A stretch of DNA of 36,906 nt from a virus (IMGVR_UViG_638341087_000007), one strand, 5' to 3'; counted from the first letter of the stretch, positions 2,849 to 33,828 are shown. The notes: generated by a model not told the origin, from the letters alone. Made by a program: numbers and translations.

Positions 2849-3247
2849 TTATCTGGATTTGTTAACGTCTTTCGTCTCCTCTGGCAGATCTTCATCAAAC
2901 AACCTGCCCTGCATCCGATCCAGTTCTTCTTTTCTGACCCGCTTAACCACGCTGTAGACCCACTGAAGCGAAACACCAAACTTGCGGGCCAGTTCGTGGT
3001 GGTTGCGTCCGTTAAACTCCCTGAAGATTTCCCGGTCGCGCTGACTGACCTTCCATACCATGCCCATCGGGAAATAAACGTTTTGCCCGCCCCAGACCTG
3101 CATCATTCGGTTCGCGACGGCCTGACCAATCTGGTCGGCAATTGCGGGCTCAATATCAATAATCTCGCGAACGGTCTCAGAGGTATGCTGTGCCAGCTCC
3201 ACCAGGAGTTCCGGCCCTTTACTTCGAAACTGATTCAGGTCGCTCAT
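2849..3247 (-). CDS. mor: Mor/C-family transcriptional activator
   Basis: 132 aa; C-terminal HTH region (...REFNGRNHHELARKFGVSLQWVYSVVKRVRK) resembles Mu Mor as I recall it; position downstream of GemA. Confidence 0.7.
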   Translation of the reverse strand: MSDLNQFRSKGPELLVELAQHTSETVREIIDIEPAIADQIGQAVANRMMQVWGGQNVYFPMGMVWKVSQRDREIFREFNGRNHHELARKFGVSLQWVYSVVKRVRKEELDRMQGRLFDEDLPEETKDVNKSR

Positions 3248-3671
3248 GTTTTACTCCCGCAGCTCTGTGCTGCCACTTCTTCAGTTTCTCAATAACACTG
3301 CTTGCCTGTTCAGTATTGAGCCAGCGCAGGGCGCTGATGCCCGTTTCCCGCTTGATCCACCGCGCTAATGCATTTTCTGAACGGTCACGAACAATGCCGG
3401 CAGCAGCCATTTCAAGCCATAGCGCACGGATTTTCCTGGACTGCGGATGGTTATCCAGCGGTAAACCGGAGCTGGCTTTTCCGGCAGGCTTAACGCGAAA
3501 GCCTTTCCTTTTCATGGATTCCAGCACGCAGTTTAGTTGTGTGGTATCCATTCCTTTGGTTGAGGCTTTACCGGTCAGCCCCTGTAACATCTGGCGGTAG
3601 GTGTCTTCATCCATACCCAGTTCATTACGGGCAATATGAATGAGCTGGATAAGACGTTGTTTAGTCATCAT
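3219..3671 (-). CDS. GemA/gp16-like protein (DUF1018 family)
   Basis: N-terminal TKQRLIQLIHIARNELGMDEDTYRQ is characteristic of Mu gp16/GemA-like proteins; start taken at internal Met, overlaps mor as in Mu. Confidence 0.65.
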   Translation of the reverse strand: MMTKQRLIQLIHIARNELGMDEDTYRQMLQGLTGKASTKGMDTTQLNCVLESMKRKGFRVKPAGKASSGLPLDNHPQSRKIRALWLEMAAAGIVRDRSENALARWIKRETGISALRWLNTEQASSVIEKLKKWQHRAAGVKHERPESVSK

Positions 3672-6699: not shown

Positions 6700-7866
6700 T
6701 TAAACCCCTTTGACAACGTCAGCGTTGACCTGTGGAACCCCGATTTCAGCGGCCAGATTCATGGCGGCTATCACCAGGTTACTGACGGCCAGCGGATACA
6801 GCAGGCTGACCCTGTTTTTACGATGACTTCCCGGATTGCTCAGGCGGGCACGTATGGCATCCACTGCGCCGGCGTCCATAATGTCCGTCAGTTGTTTACC
6901 GGCCCGTTGCAGTTTGAACGTCAGAAACTCTTCAAGGTTATTGTCGAGAGGCAGAAGTTCGACCACCTCACAGCGCTGAACGACTTCACGGACTTCCATA
7001 TTGCGTTCAGACAGTTTTGTCGCCAGTTCCGGCTGGCCAATCAGCACGATGGACAGCAGTTTTTTGAAACCGGACTCCAGCTCAAAAAAGCGTTTGAGGT
7101 GTTTCAGTGTCGGAACGGGCAGACTGTGGGCTTCCTCAATCACCAGAACGTGGCTGAACCCCGCCTGGCGGCTGTCTTTCAGGACGCGATGCAGCTGGCG
7201 AAAGCGGGCGTCCTGACTGCGTCTGATGCTTTCCAGTGGTGCGATGGTACTGATAATGGCTTCGGCAATCGCTGCTGCCTTCAGGGTTTTCCCTTTCACA
7301 TCGTTGTCTTCCATGGCGATGACGTATGGCTCGATAATAATTACCGGCGCATTCTCGCGGTTGATACGTTCAGTCAGGTCACGGCGCAGCGTGGATTTAC
7401 CCGCACCGGACTCACCGATGACAGCCATAAACCCGCCATGACGGGCTGTCTGGTACAGCGCCTCACGCACGTAGCGAATGTCCGGGGTGGTGAACACATC
7501 ATCAGAACCCTGCATGGCTTCGTCGGCGAACGGGTCACGGAAAAGACCAAACGCTTTTTTGGTTGCTGGAAATAACACCTGTTTTTTGAGTAACATATTC
7601 TCTTCCTCACTGAGGCTCGTTTTATCTGTGGTACCCGCTGTACGGGGCGTGGCCGCGCCCTGTACAGCATCAAAACTCTTCGCTGTATCAATCCCCTGAC
7701 TTTCCAGCCAGGACGCAAGACGCCGGCGCACTTCTCCGGGGCTGGTGCGGGGCCACGCGTTATGATTCACAATCTGGGCCAGCGTGGCCTCAGAAACATC
7801 GACAGCTCTCGCCACCACCGCCTGTGGAATACGGGCCTCTTTCAGTTGCTGCTTCAGTACCAGCAT
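6700..7866 (-). CDS. Mu B-like AAA+ ATPase, transposition target-DNA activator
   Basis: Walker A GESGAGKST, Walker B VLVIEEAH; N-terminal HTH; start chosen at the Met preceded by AAGGAGG (7866) rather than 7893. Confidence 0.8.
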   Translation of the reverse strand: MLVLKQQLKEARIPQAVVARAVDVSEATLAQIVNHNAWPRTSPGEVRRRLASWLESQGIDTAKSFDAVQGAATPRTAGTTDKTSLSEEENMLLKKQVLFPATKKAFGLFRDPFADEAMQGSDDVFTTPDIRYVREALYQTARHGGFMAVIGESGAGKSTLRRDLTERINRENAPVIIIEPYVIAMEDNDVKGKTLKAAAIAEAIISTIAPLESIRRSQDARFRQLHRVLKDSRQAGFSHVLVIEEAHSLPVPTLKHLKRFFELESGFKKLLSIVLIGQPELATKLSERNMEVREVVQRCEVVELLPLDNNLEEFLTFKLQRAGKQLTDIMDAGAVDAIRARLSNPGSHRKNRVSLLYPLAVSNLVIAAMNLAAEIGVPQVNADVVKGV

Positions 7867-10932: not shown

Positions 10933-11121
10933 TCAGGCTGCCTGAGCTGTTGATTTCAGCCCCAACTTCACGGCGATTTCATGGGATTTACCGTAACGGG
11001 CTTTGGTCTGCCCATTGAGAACGCGGTATACCTCATTGCGGTTGTAGCCGTTTTCTTCTGCCCAGCGGGTGAAAGTGATCCCGCGCTGGCGGAAGAGAGC
11101 TTTGACTTGTTCTGCAGTCAT
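10933..11121 (-). CDS. ner: Ner-like DNA-binding protein (Cro-like early regulator)
   Basis: 62 aa; HTH resembling the Ner/Nlp family; AAGGAGA RBS; divergent from the repressor gene. Confidence 0.65.
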   Translation of the reverse strand: MTAEQVKALFRQRGITFTRWAEENGYNRNEVYRVLNGQTKARYGKSHEIAVKLGLKSTAQAA

Positions 11122-11221
11122 CGTTGTCTCCTTTGTTGATGCAATGATGTTTGCCTTATGTGTGATAGATTATGGTGCAGATTATCTCACCAGTCAACTT
11201 AAAGAGTGCAGAAAAACTCAC
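11122..11221. promoter_or_regulatory. repressor/ner intergenic operator-promoter region
   Basis: 100-bp AT-rich divergent intergenic region with direct AGATTAT repeats and the element GTGAGATAAT on the minus strand. Confidence 0.5.
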
Positions 11222-11560
11222 ATGATCGGGTTACGTATTAAAGAAGAAAGAGAGCGTCTATCTCTTACACAGCAAGGGTTGGCTGATGCTATAGGTGTGG
11301 CAAAGAGAACTTTCATTGATTGGGAAAAAGATCGCACTTCTCCTACTGCAGTGCAGTTATCTGCACTATCAGAAATCGGTGTAGATATTTTGTATGTAGT
11401 TACTGGGGTGCGGAGTCAGCCTGTTGTTGCACCTTATGTGTCACAAGAAAAGAAAGAGTTAATGGATGCATTCGACGAAATGAGCCCCGAACAACGGAGG
11501 GCAATTCTTGAGGTCGGCAAAGTCTTCATTCAACCCAAACCAAGCAAACTCGCAGGCTGA
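11222..11560 (+). CDS. XRE-family HTH repressor (putative immunity repressor)
   Basis: Starts MIGLRIKEERERLSLTQQGLADAIGV, an XRE-type HTH; the 11069 start in the track would overlap ner. Confidence 0.6.
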   Translation: MIGLRIKEERERLSLTQQGLADAIGVAKRTFIDWEKDRTSPTAVQLSALSEIGVDILYVVTGVRSQPVVAPYVSQEKKELMDAFDEMSPEQRRAILEVGKVFIQPKPSKLAG

Positions 11561-11645: not shown

Positions 11646-11677
11646 ACCGGAAAGCATTGTGCTTTCCGGTTTTGTTC
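11646..11677 (+). terminator. rho-independent terminator downstream of the repressor gene
   Basis: Perfect 10-bp stem ACCGGAAAGC/GCTTTCCGGT, 5-nt loop, followed by TTTGTTC. Confidence 0.55.
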
Positions 11678-12440
11678 AGAAGTTGCAGATTACCAGTTCA
11701 CGGCGTGGCGTGGGTTTCCCCGCCAGACTGTAGTTGATATTCACCGTCTGTATGTTCAGTTCAGTGAACACCCGACGCATCTGCGGAATGTCATTCACCG
11801 AGATAATCATCTTTCCTCTGATGCACCGTGCCAGTTCTGCGAGTAGTGTGTAGTTCTCTTCAGGAAAATCCACACCATAGCCTTCCGTCCCCAGATAGGG
11901 CGGATCACAGTAGAACAGCGTGTGCGGACGGTCATAACGCTTAATGCACTGGTGCCAGTCCATGTGTTCTATCACCGTTCTGGAAAGCCGCAGGTGTGCC
12001 GCTGACAGTTCTTCTTCAATCCGTAGCAGGTTGAAGCGTGGCGGGGAGGTGGTGGAGGTGCCGAAGCTGTGCTCTGCCACCTTGCCCCCAAACGCCTGCT
12101 TCTGGAGGTAGTAGAACCGTGCCGCACGCTGGATATCCGTCAGTGTTTCTTCCGGGGTGATCTGCAGCCATTTGTAGATCTGCCGGCTAACCAGCGCCCA
12201 TTTGAATTGGCGGACAAATTCTTCCAGATGATGCTTTACTACCCGATACAGATTTACCAGTTCACCGTTGATATCGTTAATGACTTCGATCTTGCTGGGA
12301 GTCTTGAGAAAATAAAGTGCTGCTGCGCCGCAGAATGGCTCCACATAGCAGGTATGGAGTGGGAACTGAGGCAGAATGTGTTTGGCCAGACGACGTTTTC
12401 CCCCAATCCAGGGGACGATGGGTAAAGATTGTTCTTTCAT
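11676..12440 (-). CDS. Dam-like DNA N6-adenine methyltransferase (orphan)
   Basis: N-terminal PIVPWIGGKRR AdoMet-binding motif and DPPY catalytic motif; the track start at 12521 is a GTG, first ATG is at 12440. Confidence 0.85.
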   Translation of the reverse strand: MKEQSLPIVPWIGGKRRLAKHILPQFPLHTCYVEPFCGAAALYFLKTPSKIEVINDINGELVNLYRVVKHHLEEFVRQFKWALVSRQIYKWLQITPEETLTDIQRAARFYYLQKQAFGGKVAEHSFGTSTTSPPRFNLLRIEEELSAAHLRLSRTVIEHMDWHQCIKRYDRPHTLFYCDPPYLGTEGYGVDFPEENYTLLAELARCIRGKMIISVNDIPQMRRVFTELNIQTVNINYSLAGKPTPRRELVICNF

Positions 12441-12634: not shown

Positions 12635-13015
12635 ATGGCCCCAAAAAATATTGAGCGGTTTAATGAAATAGTTGGTGAGATATTTGGGAGACTCTACGAA
12701 TCTTTCCCCGTCAAAATTGATATAAAGGCAGTTGATATCGTTAGACAGAATGAACTTACTTTTTTTCTTGATACCGTAGACTGGCTTAAAAACAGTGGCT
12801 ATTTAATCGGGGCGCGTAGTTCTGGGGGGATCCACAACGCAGTGCTAACGGCTAAAGGTCTTGAGGTATTAAACGCTACGCCTGGAAGTCTGGAAAAACC
12901 GTTGGGGGCCAGAATATCTGACTCTATAAAAATTGAAGGGAAAGAAGCGTTGCGATCACTGGTTAGCCAGACTCTAGGAATAGGTCTGCAATATATGTCT
13001 CGTGGTCTTATGTAA
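12635..13015 (+). CDS. small protein X1 (126 aa), predicted winged-helix-like; paralogue of 13479..13883
   Basis: Shares with X2 the pattern G-x-IF-x-RL ... F-x-DT-x-x-WL ... VLT-x-K-x-L-x-x-LNA-x-P; AT-rich codon usage compared with flanking phage genes. Confidence 0.6.
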   Translation: MAPKNIERFNEIVGEIFGRLYESFPVKIDIKAVDIVRQNELTFFLDTVDWLKNSGYLIGARSSGGIHNAVLTAKGLEVLNATPGSLEKPLGARISDSIKIEGKEALRSLVSQTLGIGLQYMSRGLM

Positions 13016-13075
13016 TATCGCAAGGCAGCGTTTGCCACCAATCCATGGAACGATGGGTAATGTCTGCGTTTTCAT
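12974..13075 (-). pseudogene. dam 5' fragment (second, truncated copy)
   Basis: Minus-strand translation MKTQTLPIVPWIGGKRCL... matches Dam N-terminus MKEQSLPIVPWIGGKRRL...; frame ends after 33 codons and overlaps the X1 3' end. Confidence 0.6.
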
Positions 13076-13222
13076 AATCTGTAAACATTTTACAATTATT
13101 AAAAATATGGCAGGCTAGTCTGGTCTCACGAGACTGACTGAACCTCGGTCGGCTCACAGTGCATTCCTGTGGGACGATGGCCAGCCCGGCTTTCGGGTGC
13201 CGGGCTGGTCGTTCTTTCATGA
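13029..13222. repeat. direct repeat copy B (dam' 5' end, leader and hairpin)
   Basis: Alignable with 12395-12590. Confidence 0.6.
13181..13221 (+). terminator. hairpin plus T-tract (terminator-like) in repeat B
   Basis: 10-bp stem CCAGCCCGGC/GCCGGGCTGG, 8-nt loop, followed by TCGTTCTTTC; same relative position as the hairpin in repeat A but different stem sequence. Confidence 0.5.
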
Positions 13223-13264
13223 TGCGGCAGGGATAGTGGGATTTCTGTTAATGCGGTTTAGGGA

Positions 13265-13480
13265 TTATCCGGGGTGATTTTCTGACCTTATCTGGTCCAG
13301 GGCGTAAGTGAGCCCTTCTGCAAAAACAGAAGTATCAAACTGCTTTTGTATTTCCTGAAAATGAACAGTGGCACGACAGATACTCAGTTCTCCGCGATGT
13401 AACCGGATAATATCTTCCAGAACATTGTTCACTGCTTCAGCACGGCGCTGATGTTCTGTTAACGTTAATCGGGGATTCAT
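13265..13480 (-). CDS. hypothetical small protein (71 aa), uncertain
   Basis: Strong RBS (AAGGAG, 6 nt spacing) but its start codon overlaps the X2 start codon divergently by 2 nt. Confidence 0.3.
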   Translation of the reverse strand: MNPRLTLTEHQRRAEAVNNVLEDIIRLHRGELSICRATVHFQEIQKQFDTSVFAEGLTYALDQIRSENHPG

Positions 13481-13883
13481 GATGCACTCCTTAAATGATG
13501 ATTTTTATGTACTCACCGGCAAAATATTCTGCCGATTACTGAACACGCATCCGGTACCTCAGGTTTTGATTTATTCTGGTTTTTTCGATATCCCGGACCA
13601 GGTTGATCACGACCAGAAAAAGTGCCGGTATTTTATTGATACGCTGATATGGCTTCGGGATAACAGCTATATTCGTTACTCTCAGTTGCTGGCTGTGGGA
13701 GCGGCTGATGTCGTCCTCACGGAAAAAACGCTCTGTCTGCTCAATGCCATGCCGACCTTTCTGCAGCCCCGGCCCGTGCCATTTAAAGAGTCGCTTCTGG
13801 ATGCAGTAAAAACCGGTGAAAATGCAGTCATCGCTGAATGCGTATCCCGGATTATGCGTTACGTGTTTAATGAACGTAAGTGA
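13479..13883 (+). CDS. small protein X2 (134 aa), paralogue of X1
   Basis: Same conserved pattern as X1; GGGGA RBS; 3' end overlaps the convergent NTPase gene by 25 nt. Confidence 0.6.
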   Translation: MMHSLNDDFYVLTGKIFCRLLNTHPVPQVLIYSGFFDIPDQVDHDQKKCRYFIDTLIWLRDNSYIRYSQLLAVGAADVVLTEKTLCLLNAMPTFLQPRPVPFKESLLDAVKTGENAVIAECVSRIMRYVFNERK

Positions 13884-14602
13884 GGTTTATCCGTTGTCTG
13901 CATAATCCCGATAGCCAGTGCGAGGGGAAGCAATTCCGGGGAAACTTTTTCAAACAGCGATTCCCATTCTCCTCTCGCCATCACTCTGTCCAGCCCGCCC
14001 TCCAGCTGCATTTCAGCAATCTTCCTGATTTCCCGGAACAACGCCGCTTTGATCTCTTCATGCTCAGCTTTATTTTCCGGTGTCAGAATGTATTCGTCGA
14101 AGAACCGGGGAGGCTGGTTAACGGGGATTGTGTTCACCGGGATGTGTTCCTGCTTCCCGTACTTCGGGGCCGAAAAACATTCTGTTGGCTGACCAGCGAG
14201 TTTACGTAACTCCTTCATGAGCAGCTCCTGATCGTAAACTGTCATCAGTGCCGCAATGGTGGCATGCAGTGCATCGGGCAGTATCCAGGGTTGCCGGCCC
14301 GTGGGGCATATAACATCCAGCAGCTCATTCGTCCGACAGATACGCTCCTCGCCGTATGACAACAGGCCCTGTCCCGTGTATTCCTCCAGCCTGATCACTG
14401 TGCCAGCCCGTGGCTTCTGCCAGGTCGTCAGATCATCGCCACTCATACGGCGCTCATTCTCCACGTCAGCAGCATCGACAATGACGCTGTTTCCGAGTTC
14501 CTGTTTCACCATCTCTTCTATCCGCGCCAGTACGTAACTTTTACCGCTGCCCACAGGACCGGACACAGTGACAGTGATGACCGGATTCAGTGTGTGCGTC
14601 AT
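13859..14602 (-). CDS. P-loop NTPase, small-kinase-like N-terminal domain with unknown C-terminal domain
   Basis: Walker A VSGPVGSGKSYV near the N-terminus, candidate Walker B VIVDAAD; no further family recognised. Confidence 0.6.
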   Translation of the reverse strand: MTHTLNPVITVTVSGPVGSGKSYVLARIEEMVKQELGNSVIVDAADVENERRMSGDDLTTWQKPRAGTVIRLEEYTGQGLLSYGEERICRTNELLDVICPTGRQPWILPDALHATIAALMTVYDQELLMKELRKLAGQPTECFSAPKYGKQEHIPVNTIPVNQPPRFFDEYILTPENKAEHEEIKAALFREIRKIAEMQLEGGLDRVMARGEWESLFEKVSPELLPLALAIGIMQTTDKPHLRSLNT

Positions 14603-14662
14603 ATCGTATTCTCCTCTGTGAATAATTCATCGTTTATCCTGCACACCCCGTATCCCCGGCTC

Positions 14663-14683
14663 TCTTAACGCGCTTTAAAATCC
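14663..14683 (+). promoter_or_regulatory. candidate late promoter element upstream of the lysis operon
   Basis: TCTTAACGCGCTTTAAAATCC, one of three similar elements upstream of late operons. Confidence 0.4.
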
Positions 14684-14732
14684 TTCGCGCCCTGTATTTG
14701 TGATGCTGTCTCCACCAGACAAGGAGACACAC

Positions 14733-15083
14733 ATGAAAAGCCTGAAAAAATTCATTCCCCCTGTTAAAAAACCTCGCCTCAGCGGCTGGCTGCTGACCTC
14801 AGTGCTGTTGCTGGGCACCATCGCTCTGGTCTCGCCACAGCAGTTGCCTGTTGTGATCTACAAGCTGGCACTCATCACGCTGGCAGCAGTGCTGGGTTAC
14901 TGGCTTGACCGTTCGCTCTTCCCCAAAGCCCGTCCCGGTCAGTACCTGAAACATGACGACAGGCTGATGGCTGAAGGGCGTTTCCCTGTGCAGACCGGCC
15001 TTCACCTTGTGTTTGCTGCTGCGTTAATCCGCCGTGCACTGATTGTTGCAGCGATCTGTCTGGCTGTGGCAACAGGACTGTGA
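14733..15083 (+). CDS. membrane protein, putative holin
   Basis: 116 aa with three hydrophobic segments, first gene of the lysis cassette, AAGGAG RBS; holin role is positional inference only. Confidence 0.4.
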   Translation: MKSLKKFIPPVKKPRLSGWLLTSVLLLGTIALVSPQQLPVVIYKLALITLAAVLGYWLDRSLFPKARPGQYLKHDDRLMAEGRFPVQTGLHLVFAAALIRRALIVAAICLAVATGL

Positions 15084-17087: not shown

Positions 17088-17630
17088 ATGGGACGTCGCA
17101 GCAGCATTGATTCTCTGCCGAAGGAGGTCCGTCGCTGGCTTGAGCGGGCACTGACGGAGAATAATTTCACCGGCTATGCAGAGCTTGAAAGTCTGTTGAA
17201 GGAAAAGGGGTACAGCATCACCCGCTCTTCCCTGCAGCGGTTTGGCTACAAAATGGAGCAGCAACTGGCCCGGGTGCGGGCGGCAACCGAGGCAGCGCGT
17301 CTGCTTGCCCGGGAGGCCGGAGACGATCCTGATGACCGTTCAGCCGGGCTGATAACCCTCGTCCAGACCGAAATGACGGATATCCTGATGCGCCTGCAGG
17401 AGTCGCGGGAAAACGACGATCCCTTCGCCCGGGCAAAACTGCTGGCAACGGCTTCAAAAAATATCGCCACACTGACCCGCGCCTCGGTCAACCTCAAGCG
17501 CTATCAGGCAGAAGTCAGAGAGAGGGTTGAACGTGCTGCCGCTGCCGCCGAGAAAATTGCCCGTAAGGGCGGGCTCTCTGCGGAAGCCGTACAGGCACTG
17601 CGCCGGGAAATTCTGGGGGTGGTATCATGA
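17088..17630 (+). CDS. Mu gp27-like protein (DUF3486), terminase small-subunit candidate
   Basis: N-terminal MGRRSSIDSLPKEVRRWL resembles Mu gp27-like proteins; directly upstream of the large terminase. Confidence 0.6.
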   Translation: MGRRSSIDSLPKEVRRWLERALTENNFTGYAELESLLKEKGYSITRSSLQRFGYKMEQQLARVRAATEAARLLAREAGDDPDDRSAGLITLVQTEMTDILMRLQESRENDDPFARAKLLATASKNIATLTRASVNLKRYQAEVRERVERAAAAAEKIARKGGLSAEAVQALRREILGVVS

Positions 17631-19150
17631 CGGAGCTGCCGCCGCACATTCCTGACACCGCGAGTTATAAGGCCCCTCCCGTTCTGTTGCCCTACCAGCA
17701 GCGCTGGGTGGCAGATGCCTCTCCGCTTAAGGTGATAGAAAAGAGCCGTCGTACCGGTATTACATGGGCTGAGGCATCCGATAACGTACTGACCGCCGCC
17801 TCTTCTGCGCCAGCAGGCGGGATGAATGTGTATTACATCGCTTATAACCAGGACATGACCGTCGAATACATTCAGGCGTGTGCGATGTGGGCACGGGCAT
17901 TCAACTATGCGGCCAGTGAAATTGAAGAAGGATTCTGGGAAGAGGACGACGACGACAAACACATCAGGACTTACACCATCAAATTTCCTGACTCCGGCTT
18001 TCGTATTGTTGCGCTCTCCAGCCGCCCGTCTAACCTGCGTGGCCGTCAGGGTATTATTGTTATCGACGAAGCGGCGTTCCATGAGCAACTGGACGAACTG
18101 CTGAAAGCGGCGCTGGCGATGCTTATCTGGGGGGGAAAGGTACGCGTTATCTCCACCCATGACGGTGACGACAATCCGTTCAATACGCTTATCGGGGATA
18201 TCCGTGCCGGACGTCAGGGAGGCAGCGTACATCGCATCACTTTCCGGGAAGCCGTATCTGAGGGGCTGTTCCGGCGCGTTTGTCTGCGCACCGGGAAGGA
18301 ATGGTCGGAGGCATCCGAGCAGGCCTGGATGGCGTCAGTGTACAAATTCTACGGTGCCGGTGCATCCGAAGAGCTTGACTGTATTCCGGCCAACGGTGGC
18401 GGTGCCTGGCTGTCCCGAGCCCTGATAGAGTCCCGCATGTCCGCTGATACGCCGGTATTGCGTCTGACCTGCAAGGAAGGTTATGAGCTGCTGTCTGATG
18501 AGGTTCGCTTCCGCGAGACGCAGGACTGGCTTGATGAGCATCTGAAACCCTTGCTGGAGGCGCTCCCCGCTGGTGCCCGCTCTTTTCTGGGGCGCGACTT
18601 TGGCCGTAGCGGTGATTTGTCGGTGGACTATCCCCTGCTGCAGGAGAAGAACCTGATACGACGCGTGCCATTCGTACTGGAGTTGCGTAACGTGCCGTTC
18701 AGGCAGCAGGAGCAAATCACCTGGTATCTGATGGATGGCCTGCCCGGTCTGCTGGGTGCTGCGTTTGATGCCCGTGGTAATGGTGCCTATCTGGCTGAAT
18801 ACGCCATGCAGCGCTACGGCTCCAGCCGGGTTCAGCAGGTGATGCCAACCGAAGGCTGGTACCGGGAGCATATGCCTCCGGTCAAAGCTGCACTGGAAGA
18901 CGGTAACCTGGTGGACTTACCAAAGGATGAAGACACACTGGATGACCTGCGGGCCGTTCAGGTGGTGAACGGTGTCCCCCGCGTGCCGGAGCAACGCTCA
19001 AAAGCAAAGGCTGATGGTGGTAAACGCCACGGGGATTCAGCCATCGCACTGGCGCTGGCGTATTTCGCCAGCCGTGAAATTAACAAAGGGCCGGTGAAGG
19101 CAAGCTCACGCCGTCGTCGTCAGGCGGCCCGTATGCTGGAGGGATTCTGA
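17627..19150 (+). CDS. terminase large subunit (Mu gp28-like)
   Basis: 507 aa, position and size; nuclease-type acidic motifs in the C-terminal half. Confidence 0.75.
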   Translation: MTELPPHIPDTASYKAPPVLLPYQQRWVADASPLKVIEKSRRTGITWAEASDNVLTAASSAPAGGMNVYYIAYNQDMTVEYIQACAMWARAFNYAASEIEEGFWEEDDDDKHIRTYTIKFPDSGFRIVALSSRPSNLRGRQGIIVIDEAAFHEQLDELLKAALAMLIWGGKVRVISTHDGDDNPFNTLIGDIRAGRQGGSVHRITFREAVSEGLFRRVCLRTGKEWSEASEQAWMASVYKFYGAGASEELDCIPANGGGAWLSRALIESRMSADTPVLRLTCKEGYELLSDEVRFRETQDWLDEHLKPLLEALPAGARSFLGRDFGRSGDLSVDYPLLQEKNLIRRVPFVLELRNVPFRQQEQITWYLMDGLPGLLGAAFDARGNGAYLAEYAMQRYGSSRVQQVMPTEGWYREHMPPVKAALEDGNLVDLPKDEDTLDDLRAVQVVNGVPRVPEQRSKAKADGGKRHGDSAIALALAYFASREINKGPVKASSRRRRQAARMLEGF

Positions 19151-33772: not shown

Positions 33773-33828
33773 ACCTTCTTAAACGCCTTTAATATCGGCG
33801 CTTACTTCCCGGGGGCAATACTGCCTCC

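Follow-up and report, generated by a model that had tools for sequence, protein, structure and literature searches.

Comparative analysis suggests that an accessory gene beside the late promoter of an Escherichia coli prophage encodes a modular protein built on a mini P-loop domain. The gene (hereafter the P-loop gene) lies at 13859..14602 on the minus strand of IMGVR_UViG_638341087_000007, a 36,906-nucleotide stretch of viral DNA that we refer to as the window and that is a BcepMu-like (Bcepmuvirus) transposable, Mu-like prophage of E. coli. It is a genuine, conserved and uncharacterised accessory gene. Our preferred reading, held tentatively and at a little less than an even chance, is that its product is a late-expressed modular accessory protein in which a mini P-loop binds a nucleotide or phosphoryl ligand and exchangeable modules dock the protein onto a partner, in host takeover or conflict. 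Our confidence in this anatomy is moderate, and our confidence in the proposed activity is low.

Coding signals, selection and family membership identify the P-loop gene as real. Its open reading frame (ORF) starts with ATG, encodes 247 amino acids (aa) and is annotated in the same frame by RefSeq (WP_000149907, hypothetical protein). Because it follows a strong GAGGAG site, has ratios of nonsynonymous to synonymous polymorphism (pN/pS) of about 0.2–0.6 in its N-terminal, middle and C-terminal parts (orthologues 90–97% identical; small counts) and matches PHROG 3787 end to end (E 2.4e-164, residues 1–247 against profile positions 1–242), we regard it as a real gene; purifying selection acts over its full length. 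An initial annotation, made from the sequence alone, had called the same 247-aa ORF, placed a Walker A motif within its first 25 residues, and described a 130-bp divergent spacer, with a control region shared with the lysis operon, on one side and a 25-nt overlap with a neighbouring gene, X2, on the other. All of this is borne out: GPVGSGKS occupies residues 15–22, the spacer runs from 14603 to 14732 with the holin ATG at 14733, the control region is shared divergently by the P-loop gene and the lysis operon, and the convergent overlap with X2 covers 13859–13883. The protein (27.7 kDa) has an isoelectric point of 5.2 (about 5.0 for the N-terminal module alone) and no transmembrane segment (maximum KD19 hydropathy 1.33); its acidity and the absent membrane segment weigh weakly against nucleic-acid binding and a holin-like role. 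The parts of the gene are:

13859..14602, minus strand: P-loop gene, complete coding sequence of 247 aa, PHROG 3787 member, at the accessory block's border with the late promoter
14611..14616, minus strand: Shine–Dalgarno site GAGGAG, 8 nt 5′ of the P-loop gene ATG, from direct reading of the sequence
14378..14602, minus strand: mini P-loop module, residues 1–75, the sole part conserved family-wide
14537..14560, minus strand: Walker A motif GPVGSGKS, residues 15–22, kept in 199/202 family members
14195..14356, minus strand: helical module a, residues 83–136 (PWILPDALHATIAALMTVYDQELLMKELRKL), from structure prediction and alignments
14084..14194, minus strand: predicted disordered linker, residues 137–173, prediction confidence about 30, which holds the recombination junction of the 158-aa variants
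13862..14080, minus strand: helical module b, residues 175–247 (..GGLDRVMARGEWESLF..), from structure prediction and alignments

The P-loop protein is an extended, fused member of an uncurated family of mini P-loop proteins. An exhaustive phmmer scan of 1.8 billion representatives returned 54 matches, and beyond near-identical E. coli proteins these aligned over residues 1–76 only. Searching with a profile of 21 diverse N-terminal modules (alignment A5; cut-off E ≤ 0.01) recovered 382 proteins, the best 120 of which are all ≤136 aa long and mostly 68–90 aa. The family consensus is hTVTVSGPxGxGKSxhxxEIEIALKAhGhxVxxxD..SEKxMTxADW...YxPxVVhxE, and many short proteins stop there. In predicted order the module comprises strand beta1, Walker A, helix alpha1, strand beta2 (VIVDAAD), a loop or helix with E50, W61 and P64, and strand beta3 (TVIRLEE). 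Across three alignments (A2, A3 and A5), G15, G18, G20, K21, S22, I28, G37 and E50 are invariant and P64 is near-invariant; VIVD43 is conserved in the enterobacterial subgroup only, and D46, E50 and the glutamate that ends beta3 (E73/E74) are conserved throughout the family. A lone Walker A string is weak evidence, since the six frames of the window hold four [AG]x4GK[ST] strings, two of them in spurious ORFs. Across the family, G-x4-GK[STN] is kept in 199/202 collected members, in a domain that is always N-terminal and starts within the first few residues. The mini-domain is the real core of the family, and the PHROG 3787 profile does not resolve it as a unit.

Family members occur in diverse places, and all of their contexts are phage or prophage. 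Stand-alone short forms in three loci (L044, L046 and L048) sit in tightly packed phage operons, with neighbours that overlap or abut them start to stop, so these forms are real genes rather than truncation artefacts. Some stand-alone relatives lie within arrays of early or accessory ORFs of about 70 aa, a homologue lies one to three genes upstream of HNH-TerS-TerL in 7/18 distinct loci, and in a Serratia Mu-like prophage a homologue is directly upstream of GemA-Mor. We found no partner gene conserved across the family; HNH, TerS and TerL recur in one phage group only. In tblastn searches of GenBank phages the P-loop gene was found essentially only in PhiKM, and a scan of genome contigs gave two weak loci only, one of them a PilT false positive. 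One possibility, which we consider doubtful on balance, is that residues 1–75 constitute a natural autonomous Walker A domain of about 70 residues, widespread as a stand-alone protein among temperate phages, both of Proteobacteria and further afield; such a domain would be a self-sufficient, perhaps oligomeric, binder of nucleotides or phosphoryl ligands (e.g., a sponge or switch for nucleotides of host metabolism or immune signalling), fused in enterobacterial BcepMu-like phages to exchangeable targeting modules under a bidirectional Mor-type late promoter. To our knowledge, all natural P-loop proteins described so far are larger than such a domain would be.

The remainder of the protein is variable and mosaic. 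Its C-terminal 170 residues are predicted to form two helical modules with a disordered linker between them, and the whole protein can be read as a chain of three units: the mini P-loop (1–75), module a (83–136) and module b (175–247). Members from Salmonella and Citrobacter prophages are 200–364 aa long and share the N-terminal module, followed by differing C-termini made of recurring blocks of 45–70 residues in varying order. For example, module a is the extreme C-terminus of the Salmonella members P0024 and P0026 and of 141-aa E. coli variants, which end after it, and P0063 carries module a without a P-loop; modules related to b are found in the Salmonella members P0028, P0030, P0033 and P0038. 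Protein identity of the modules between genera is 40–55%. Other E. coli forms, of 158 aa, are cut inside the linker by a cargo junction. In E. coli FDAARGOS_1252 (locus L003, about 3294–3617, minus strand) the slot divergent from the holin gene holds an unannotated 107-aa ORF without a P-loop, 39–41% identical (E about 1e-10) to the C-terminal module of Salmonella P0037 and P0051; this ORF adjoins a DUF2441 cargo gene. These patterns identify the C-terminal modules as independent units, which prophages of Escherichia, Salmonella and Citrobacter shuffle from a common pool.

The spacer between the P-loop gene and the holin gene has a symmetry that suggests joint activation in both directions. 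Its elements are:

14665..14678: imperfect dyad TTAACGC/GCTTTAA, centred between 14671 and 14672, from the spacer alignment, a candidate site for a Mor-family activator
14636..14641, minus strand: leftward −10-like hexamer CAGGAT, nt 31–36 from the dyad centre
14702..14707, plus strand: rightward −10-like hexamer GATGCT of the lysis/late promoter, nt 31–36 from the dyad centre

In nine loci, three of which have diverged spacers, the left hexamer (CAGGAT, but in L006 CAGAAT) and its counterpart on the right ([GAC]ATGCT) each lie at nt 31–36 from the dyad centre; the left hexamer is kept in L017, L018 and L020 despite diverged 23-nt spacers. L004, which is without the P-loop gene, keeps the dyad and does not have the left hexamer. 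In L003 a similar hexamer (CAGAAT) at the same offset was read by eye only and is not script-confirmed, our script not having found the L003 dyad. Every BcepMu-like locus with the P-loop gene has it divergent from the holin gene, regardless of the cargo alongside. In Mu, the sites bound by Mor and C dimers are 16-bp dyads with their centres at −43.5, in promoters that have a −10 hexamer and no −35 element (PMC4390567, PMC2582627). Here the dyad centre falls at about −42.5 to −43.5 for both directions, with a −10-like hexamer and no −35, which is the Mor/C geometry, and a search of the minus strand revealed no promoter of the sigma-70 consensus type. Because of the sequence symmetry and its conservation, we infer a bidirectional promoter that would depend on a Mor-family activator, presumably the product of the window's Mor-family gene (2849–3247), and that would switch on the P-loop gene together with the lysis genes. 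The geometry points to late, Mor-type expression rather than expression in the lysogen. A second dyad-like site (TTAAACGCCTTTAA), the sole further intergenic candidate in the window, lies in the gap at 33779–33792; upstream of the holin gene of BcepMu, a regular-expression search returned no dyad of this kind.

Searches against known families matched the P-loop and little else. In Pfam, NCBIfam, PADLOC and PDB sequences, only sub-threshold generic P-loop matches were found, over residues of about 4–56, and the C-terminus has no family match in these libraries, in keeping with the initial annotation, which recognised no motif there. A PDB sequence profile search matched beta1–P-loop–alpha1(–beta2) only, to ABC nucleotide-binding domains, kinases, PilT, 6c2u and 9jix. 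The sequence has G-x4-GK[ST] between an N-terminal strand and a helix, as in the P-loop NTPase superfamily, and membership is supported at the level of this motif. No structural match and no complete three-layer alpha/beta core with a parallel sheet of at least five strands were found. The description "unassigned P-loop NTPase" given in the initial annotation is therefore right about the motif and the unassigned status, and a complete kinase-like NTPase core is not supported; what had been called a short kinase-like core is, as a conserved unit, only the beta–P-loop–alpha–beta–(alpha)–beta module of about 70 residues. Homology to a standard replication or packaging ATPase, one of the findings that the initial annotation named as counting against its proposal, was not found, and the window's own MuB-like ATPase and TerL are unrelated to the P-loop protein.

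Individual families were considered and set aside. Zeta toxin/UNAG-kinase (PF06414) matched residues 11–47 only (E 0.15, 11.9 bits against a cut-off of 22.3), and KAP NTPase (PF07693) residues 4–43 (E 0.025, 14.3 bits against a cut-off of 20), in a protein with no transmembrane segment. ABC_tran matched residues 4–49 only (E 0.23), and no ABC signature motif was seen on reading the sequence. For MuB, DnaB/DnaC and TerL there was no Pfam, PHROG or NCBIfam match, the window carrying MuB-like and TerL genes of its own, and for kinases, STAND proteins and helicases the family libraries gave only sub-threshold generic P-loop matches. In PADLOC-DB 2.0 the best match of the P-loop protein (E 0.015) was to the P-loop only, and X2 and two further accessory proteins of the window (p4490 and p2266A, listed below) had no matches. 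The database names "ABC transporter ATPase" on 141-aa variants and "KAP family NTPase" on E. coli fragments arise from the Walker A motif alone. Nothing was found in favour of a link between the P-loop protein and a replication, packaging or toxin role.

Structure prediction supports the division into modules. A first AlphaFold2 (AF2) model, from a shallow alignment, was unusable (predicted local distance difference test score, pLDDT, 44.6) and had strands at residues 8–14, 41–44 and 69–75. A second run, with a 38-sequence alignment, gave pLDDT >90 for residues 11–70, 50–65 for the helices at 83–136 and 175–246, and about 30 for residues 141–173.

Under the reading we prefer, residues 1–75 would form an autonomous mini P-loop (an N-terminal strand, Walker A, a helix and two strands, the last ending in a conserved glutamate), joined by flexible linkers to two helical modules taken from a recombining prophage pool. 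Leftward transcription would start from a promoter that mirrors the lysis promoter across a common activator dyad, such that a Mor-type activator would switch the gene on in lytic growth rather than in lysogeny. The ligand of the P-loop would be a nucleotide or another phosphoryl compound, hydrolysis of which might require the protein to self-associate, and the variable C-terminal modules would dock the protein onto a host or phage partner. Its role would be that of a host-takeover or conflict-type accessory rather than a part of core replication, packaging or lysis. The results themselves establish that the gene is real, where its domains end, how large the family is, its modular build, the symmetry of the promoter and that X2 can be dispensed with, whereas dependence on Mor, binding of a ligand and a part in conflict are inferred.

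Several observations weigh against this reading. DSSP assigned no strands to the confident N-terminal module of the second AF2 model, unlike the first model, and the fold proposed for residues 1–75 is putative. Catalysis is doubtful because 70 residues are too few for a canonical five-stranded NTPase core. Three family members have GKN instead of GKS/T. The left hexamer is a poor −10 element, in which A2 and T6 alone match the consensus. Expression timing is not uniform across the family, given the early-array and GemA-Mor placements in other phages. Many E. coli copies of the P-loop gene are truncated or frameshifted, and 182-aa E. coli forms are without residues 52–124 and hence without strand beta3, which together imply that the function is dispensable, at least in prophages. 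Finally, a literature search for the accessions of the P-loop protein and for small P-loop phage proteins found nothing.

Each rival explanation is nonetheless less well supported than the late-expressed modular accessory. The initial annotation had suggested a toxin or abortive-infection component paired with X2, the two coupled in expression by their convergent overlap. The overlap of 25 nt is present, and X2 adjoins the P-loop gene in most E. coli copies; however, an IMG/VR relative (L006; 6746–6752) carries a 318-bp in-frame deletion inside X2 (window 13533–13850) that ends 8 nt beyond the P-loop gene stop and leaves that gene intact, and in L008–L012 and L017–L020 the P-loop gene stands beside entirely different cargo without X2. 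This rules X2 out both as an obligate partner and as an antitoxin, and coupling to it is not a defining feature of the P-loop gene; X2 itself is dispensable. The X2 paralogue at 12635–13015 is not associated with any P-loop gene. Matches to Zeta_toxin (E 0.15) and AbiEii-type models are sub-threshold and confined to the P-loop, and no PADLOC model matches beyond it, so that the toxin, abortive-infection or nucleotide-modifying role proposed earlier gains nothing, and we regard the pairing as the most improbable of the rivals. The least unlikely of them, and still unlikely in our view, is a "moron" expressed in the lysogen for prophage defence or superinfection exclusion, with the P-loop as switch or effector and the hypervariable C-terminus as a sensor of incoming phages. 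Such a gene would suit the border of the variable cargo hotspot between the repressor gene and the holin gene, a C-terminus that is hypervariable and mosaic like that of conflict genes, and a related prophage region present in 633/5426 complete E. coli genomes. It sits poorly with the promoter region, which has no sigma-70-type promoter and a geometry that mirrors an activator-dependent late promoter, with the absence of any PADLOC match beyond the P-loop, and with the many truncated prophage copies. Furthermore, most family members are stand-alone proteins of 70–90 aa in lytic-cycle operons, a poor fit to a sensor–effector.

An auxiliary factor of the late programme, acting for instance in lysis timing or the start of packaging, would account for the divergent and probably co-regulated position of the P-loop gene next to the lysis/late operon and for the 7/18 distinct loci with a homologue one to three genes upstream of HNH endonuclease, TerS and TerL. 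We consider it unlikely too, ranking it behind the moron: BcepMu, L003 and L004 are without the P-loop gene yet their lysis and packaging modules are complete, truncated copies of the gene are common in prophages, other homologues belong to early arrays distant from late genes, the protein has no membrane segment, and the early/late junction is a generic hotspot for accessory genes. Recombination junctions inside the gene (in the 158-, 141- and 182-aa variants) and frequent frameshifted fragments are what one would expect if it were a functionless, decaying fusion ORF, retained solely because its 5′ end adjoins the late promoter and anchors the recombination by which cargo is exchanged. This is improbable, although not as much so as the pairing with X2, since each of the three parts has a pN/pS below 1, 199/202 members keep Walker A, the modules retain 40–55% protein identity between genera, and both the Shine–Dalgarno site and the left hexamer are conserved.

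The wider setting of the P-loop gene is that of a common E. coli prophage with exchangeable cargo. The window is 100% identical to E. coli M-17 (2.6 kb tested), related versions of the tested part are present in 633/5426 complete E. coli genomes, and the closest sequenced phage is PhiKM (94% nucleotide identity). The layout, taken from the RefSeq annotation of M-17 and from ORF comparison among relatives, is:

2849–3247, minus strand: Mor-family transcription activator gene, last gene of the early operon, from RefSeq annotation
6700–7866: MuB-like ATPase gene, from RefSeq annotation and ORF comparison
10933–11121, minus strand: Ner-like gene, at the first end of the early operon, which runs leftward to the Mor-family gene
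11102–11560, plus strand: repressor-type helix-turn-helix gene
11676–12440, minus strand: dam methylase gene, accessory block
12635–13015, plus strand: PHROG 2266 copy A (p2266A), accessory block
13265–13480, minus strand: PHROG 4490 gene (p4490), accessory block
13479–13883, plus strand: X2, PHROG 2266 copy B, convergent with the P-loop gene
14733–15083, plus strand: holin gene (Holin_2-3, E 2e-40), first gene of the lysis/late operon, divergent from the P-loop gene
17627–19150: TerL gene, from RefSeq annotation and ORF comparison

The late genes run rightward from the holin gene through SLT transglycosylase and Rz-like genes to the terminase and beyond. In M-17 the left end of the prophage (window about 1740; L005 3052–3240) adjoins a truncated fragment of otsA (trehalose-6-phosphate synthase), near flhDC and uspC, as would be expected of a phage that, like Mu, transposes at random and landed in a host gene.

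Between the repressor gene and the holin gene lies a cargo hotspot, with the P-loop gene at its late-promoter border. Its contents vary between relatives (dam, transmembrane proteins, DUF2441 and multi-gene cassettes), and BcepMu has unrelated genes (gp18-20) in this region. The cargo of L019 (6502–9308) encodes a 173-aa cysteine-rich protein, a 297-aa protein and a 153-aa protein with multiple transmembrane segments, and that of L008 (6515–8173) encodes membrane proteins of 196 and 328 aa downstream of the repressor; both sets may be cassettes for lysogenic conversion or defence. Within the window, X2 and copy A, both on the plus strand, form a diverged PHROG 2266 pair within 1 kb; phmmer relates one to the other at E about 1e-6, and neither has a Pfam, NCBIfam or PADLOC match. 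A neighbour in the Pseudomonas-type locus L024 looked X2-like by eye, but phmmer found no similarity. The start codons of p4490 (minus strand) and X2 (plus strand) overlap (CATG, window 13478–13481), so each promoter must lie inside the coding sequence of the other gene. A leftward operon of the P-loop gene, p4490 and dam was considered and rejected, as dam has a TATAAT-type promoter of its own and a separating hairpin, and L004 has dam without the P-loop gene. To the left of p4490, at 13010–13075 on the minus strand, lies a duplicated dam 5′ fragment (MKTQTLPIVPWIGGKR..., with a TAATAAT promoter and an upstream hairpin), and the copy A cassette stands between this fragment and intact dam (12440). 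The arrangement looks like an insertion or recombination scar; this part is covered in 17/633 genomes only, most E. coli relatives being without the scar. A GC-rich hairpin at 13190–13225 on the plus strand (GGCCAGCCCGGC...GCCGGGCTGGTC), followed by GTTCTTTC, is oriented to stop rightward transcription. The same hairpin element occurs in L004 between dam and the late promoter, and a terminator scan did not call it.

If the module of about 70 residues does fold and bind nucleotides alone, the minimal beta–(P-loop)–alpha prototypes made in the laboratory as models for the origin of P-loop NTPases would have a counterpart in nature. The module would also represent a new and abundant class among the small phage accessory proteins now mined for host takeover and counter-defence. 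The mirror-image promoter suggests that one Mor-type activator dimer may fire two divergent late transcripts. The shuffled C-terminal modules offer a compact system for the study of domain exchange, in a prophage whose relatives occur in roughly a ninth of complete E. coli genomes, sequence type 131 (ST131) among them. If none of this holds, the P-loop gene is one more hypothetical accessory gene.

The protein can be compared with several known systems. Like members of the P-loop NTPase superfamily (AAA_30, AAA_16, AAA_22, ABC_tran, T2SSE and KAP_NTPase), it has an N-terminal strand, G-x4-GK[ST] and an amphipathic helix, followed later by a hydrophobic strand with an acidic end (TVIRLEE) that resembles Walker B, and its profile matches many of these families over beta1–P-loop–alpha1. 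These matches fall below curated cut-offs and stop at about residue 50, however, and the protein has no ABC signature, sensor or lid motif and no structural match. Canonical P-loop cores need at least 150 residues and five strands, whereas the phage module has about 70 residues and occurs stand-alone. The module resembles the designed minimal P-loop proteins 6c2u ("phosphate-loop protein") and 9jix (de novo ATPase PL2x4_2), which, like it, contain little beyond beta–(P-loop)–alpha units and which rank with the top hits of the family profile in PDB sequences (E 7e-6 and 2e-3, respectively). Those proteins are artificial, the similarity is to an idealised consensus and implies no evolutionary link, and ligand binding by the phage module is putative. 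Zeta toxins and small nucleotide kinases also have a Walker A near the N-terminus and a similar full length, but the P-loop protein has no substrate-binding or lid region and its C-terminal helical modules are unrelated to kinases. PHROG 3787 matches over the full length, and stand-alone mini-proteins match the first 70 or so positions of its profile, although that profile depicts the 242-aa enterobacterial fusion form.

The promoter region is closest to the middle and late promoters of Mu that Mor and C activate, with a dyad about 43 bp upstream of the inferred start, a −10 element, no −35 and a Mor-family gene in the phage. Here, by contrast, one dyad appears to serve two mirror-image −10 hexamers, and the dyad (TTAAnGC/GCTTTAA), a putative activator-binding site, belongs to this phage group and not to Mu. 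As for the overall build of the protein, "polyvalent proteins" follow a logic of multi-domain fusions, in which small phage accessory modules are joined on flexible linkers. At 247 aa the P-loop protein is far smaller than such fusions, and its modules include no known anti-defence or enzymatic domain, but as in polyvalent-type fusions its modules recur alone or reordered in related elements.

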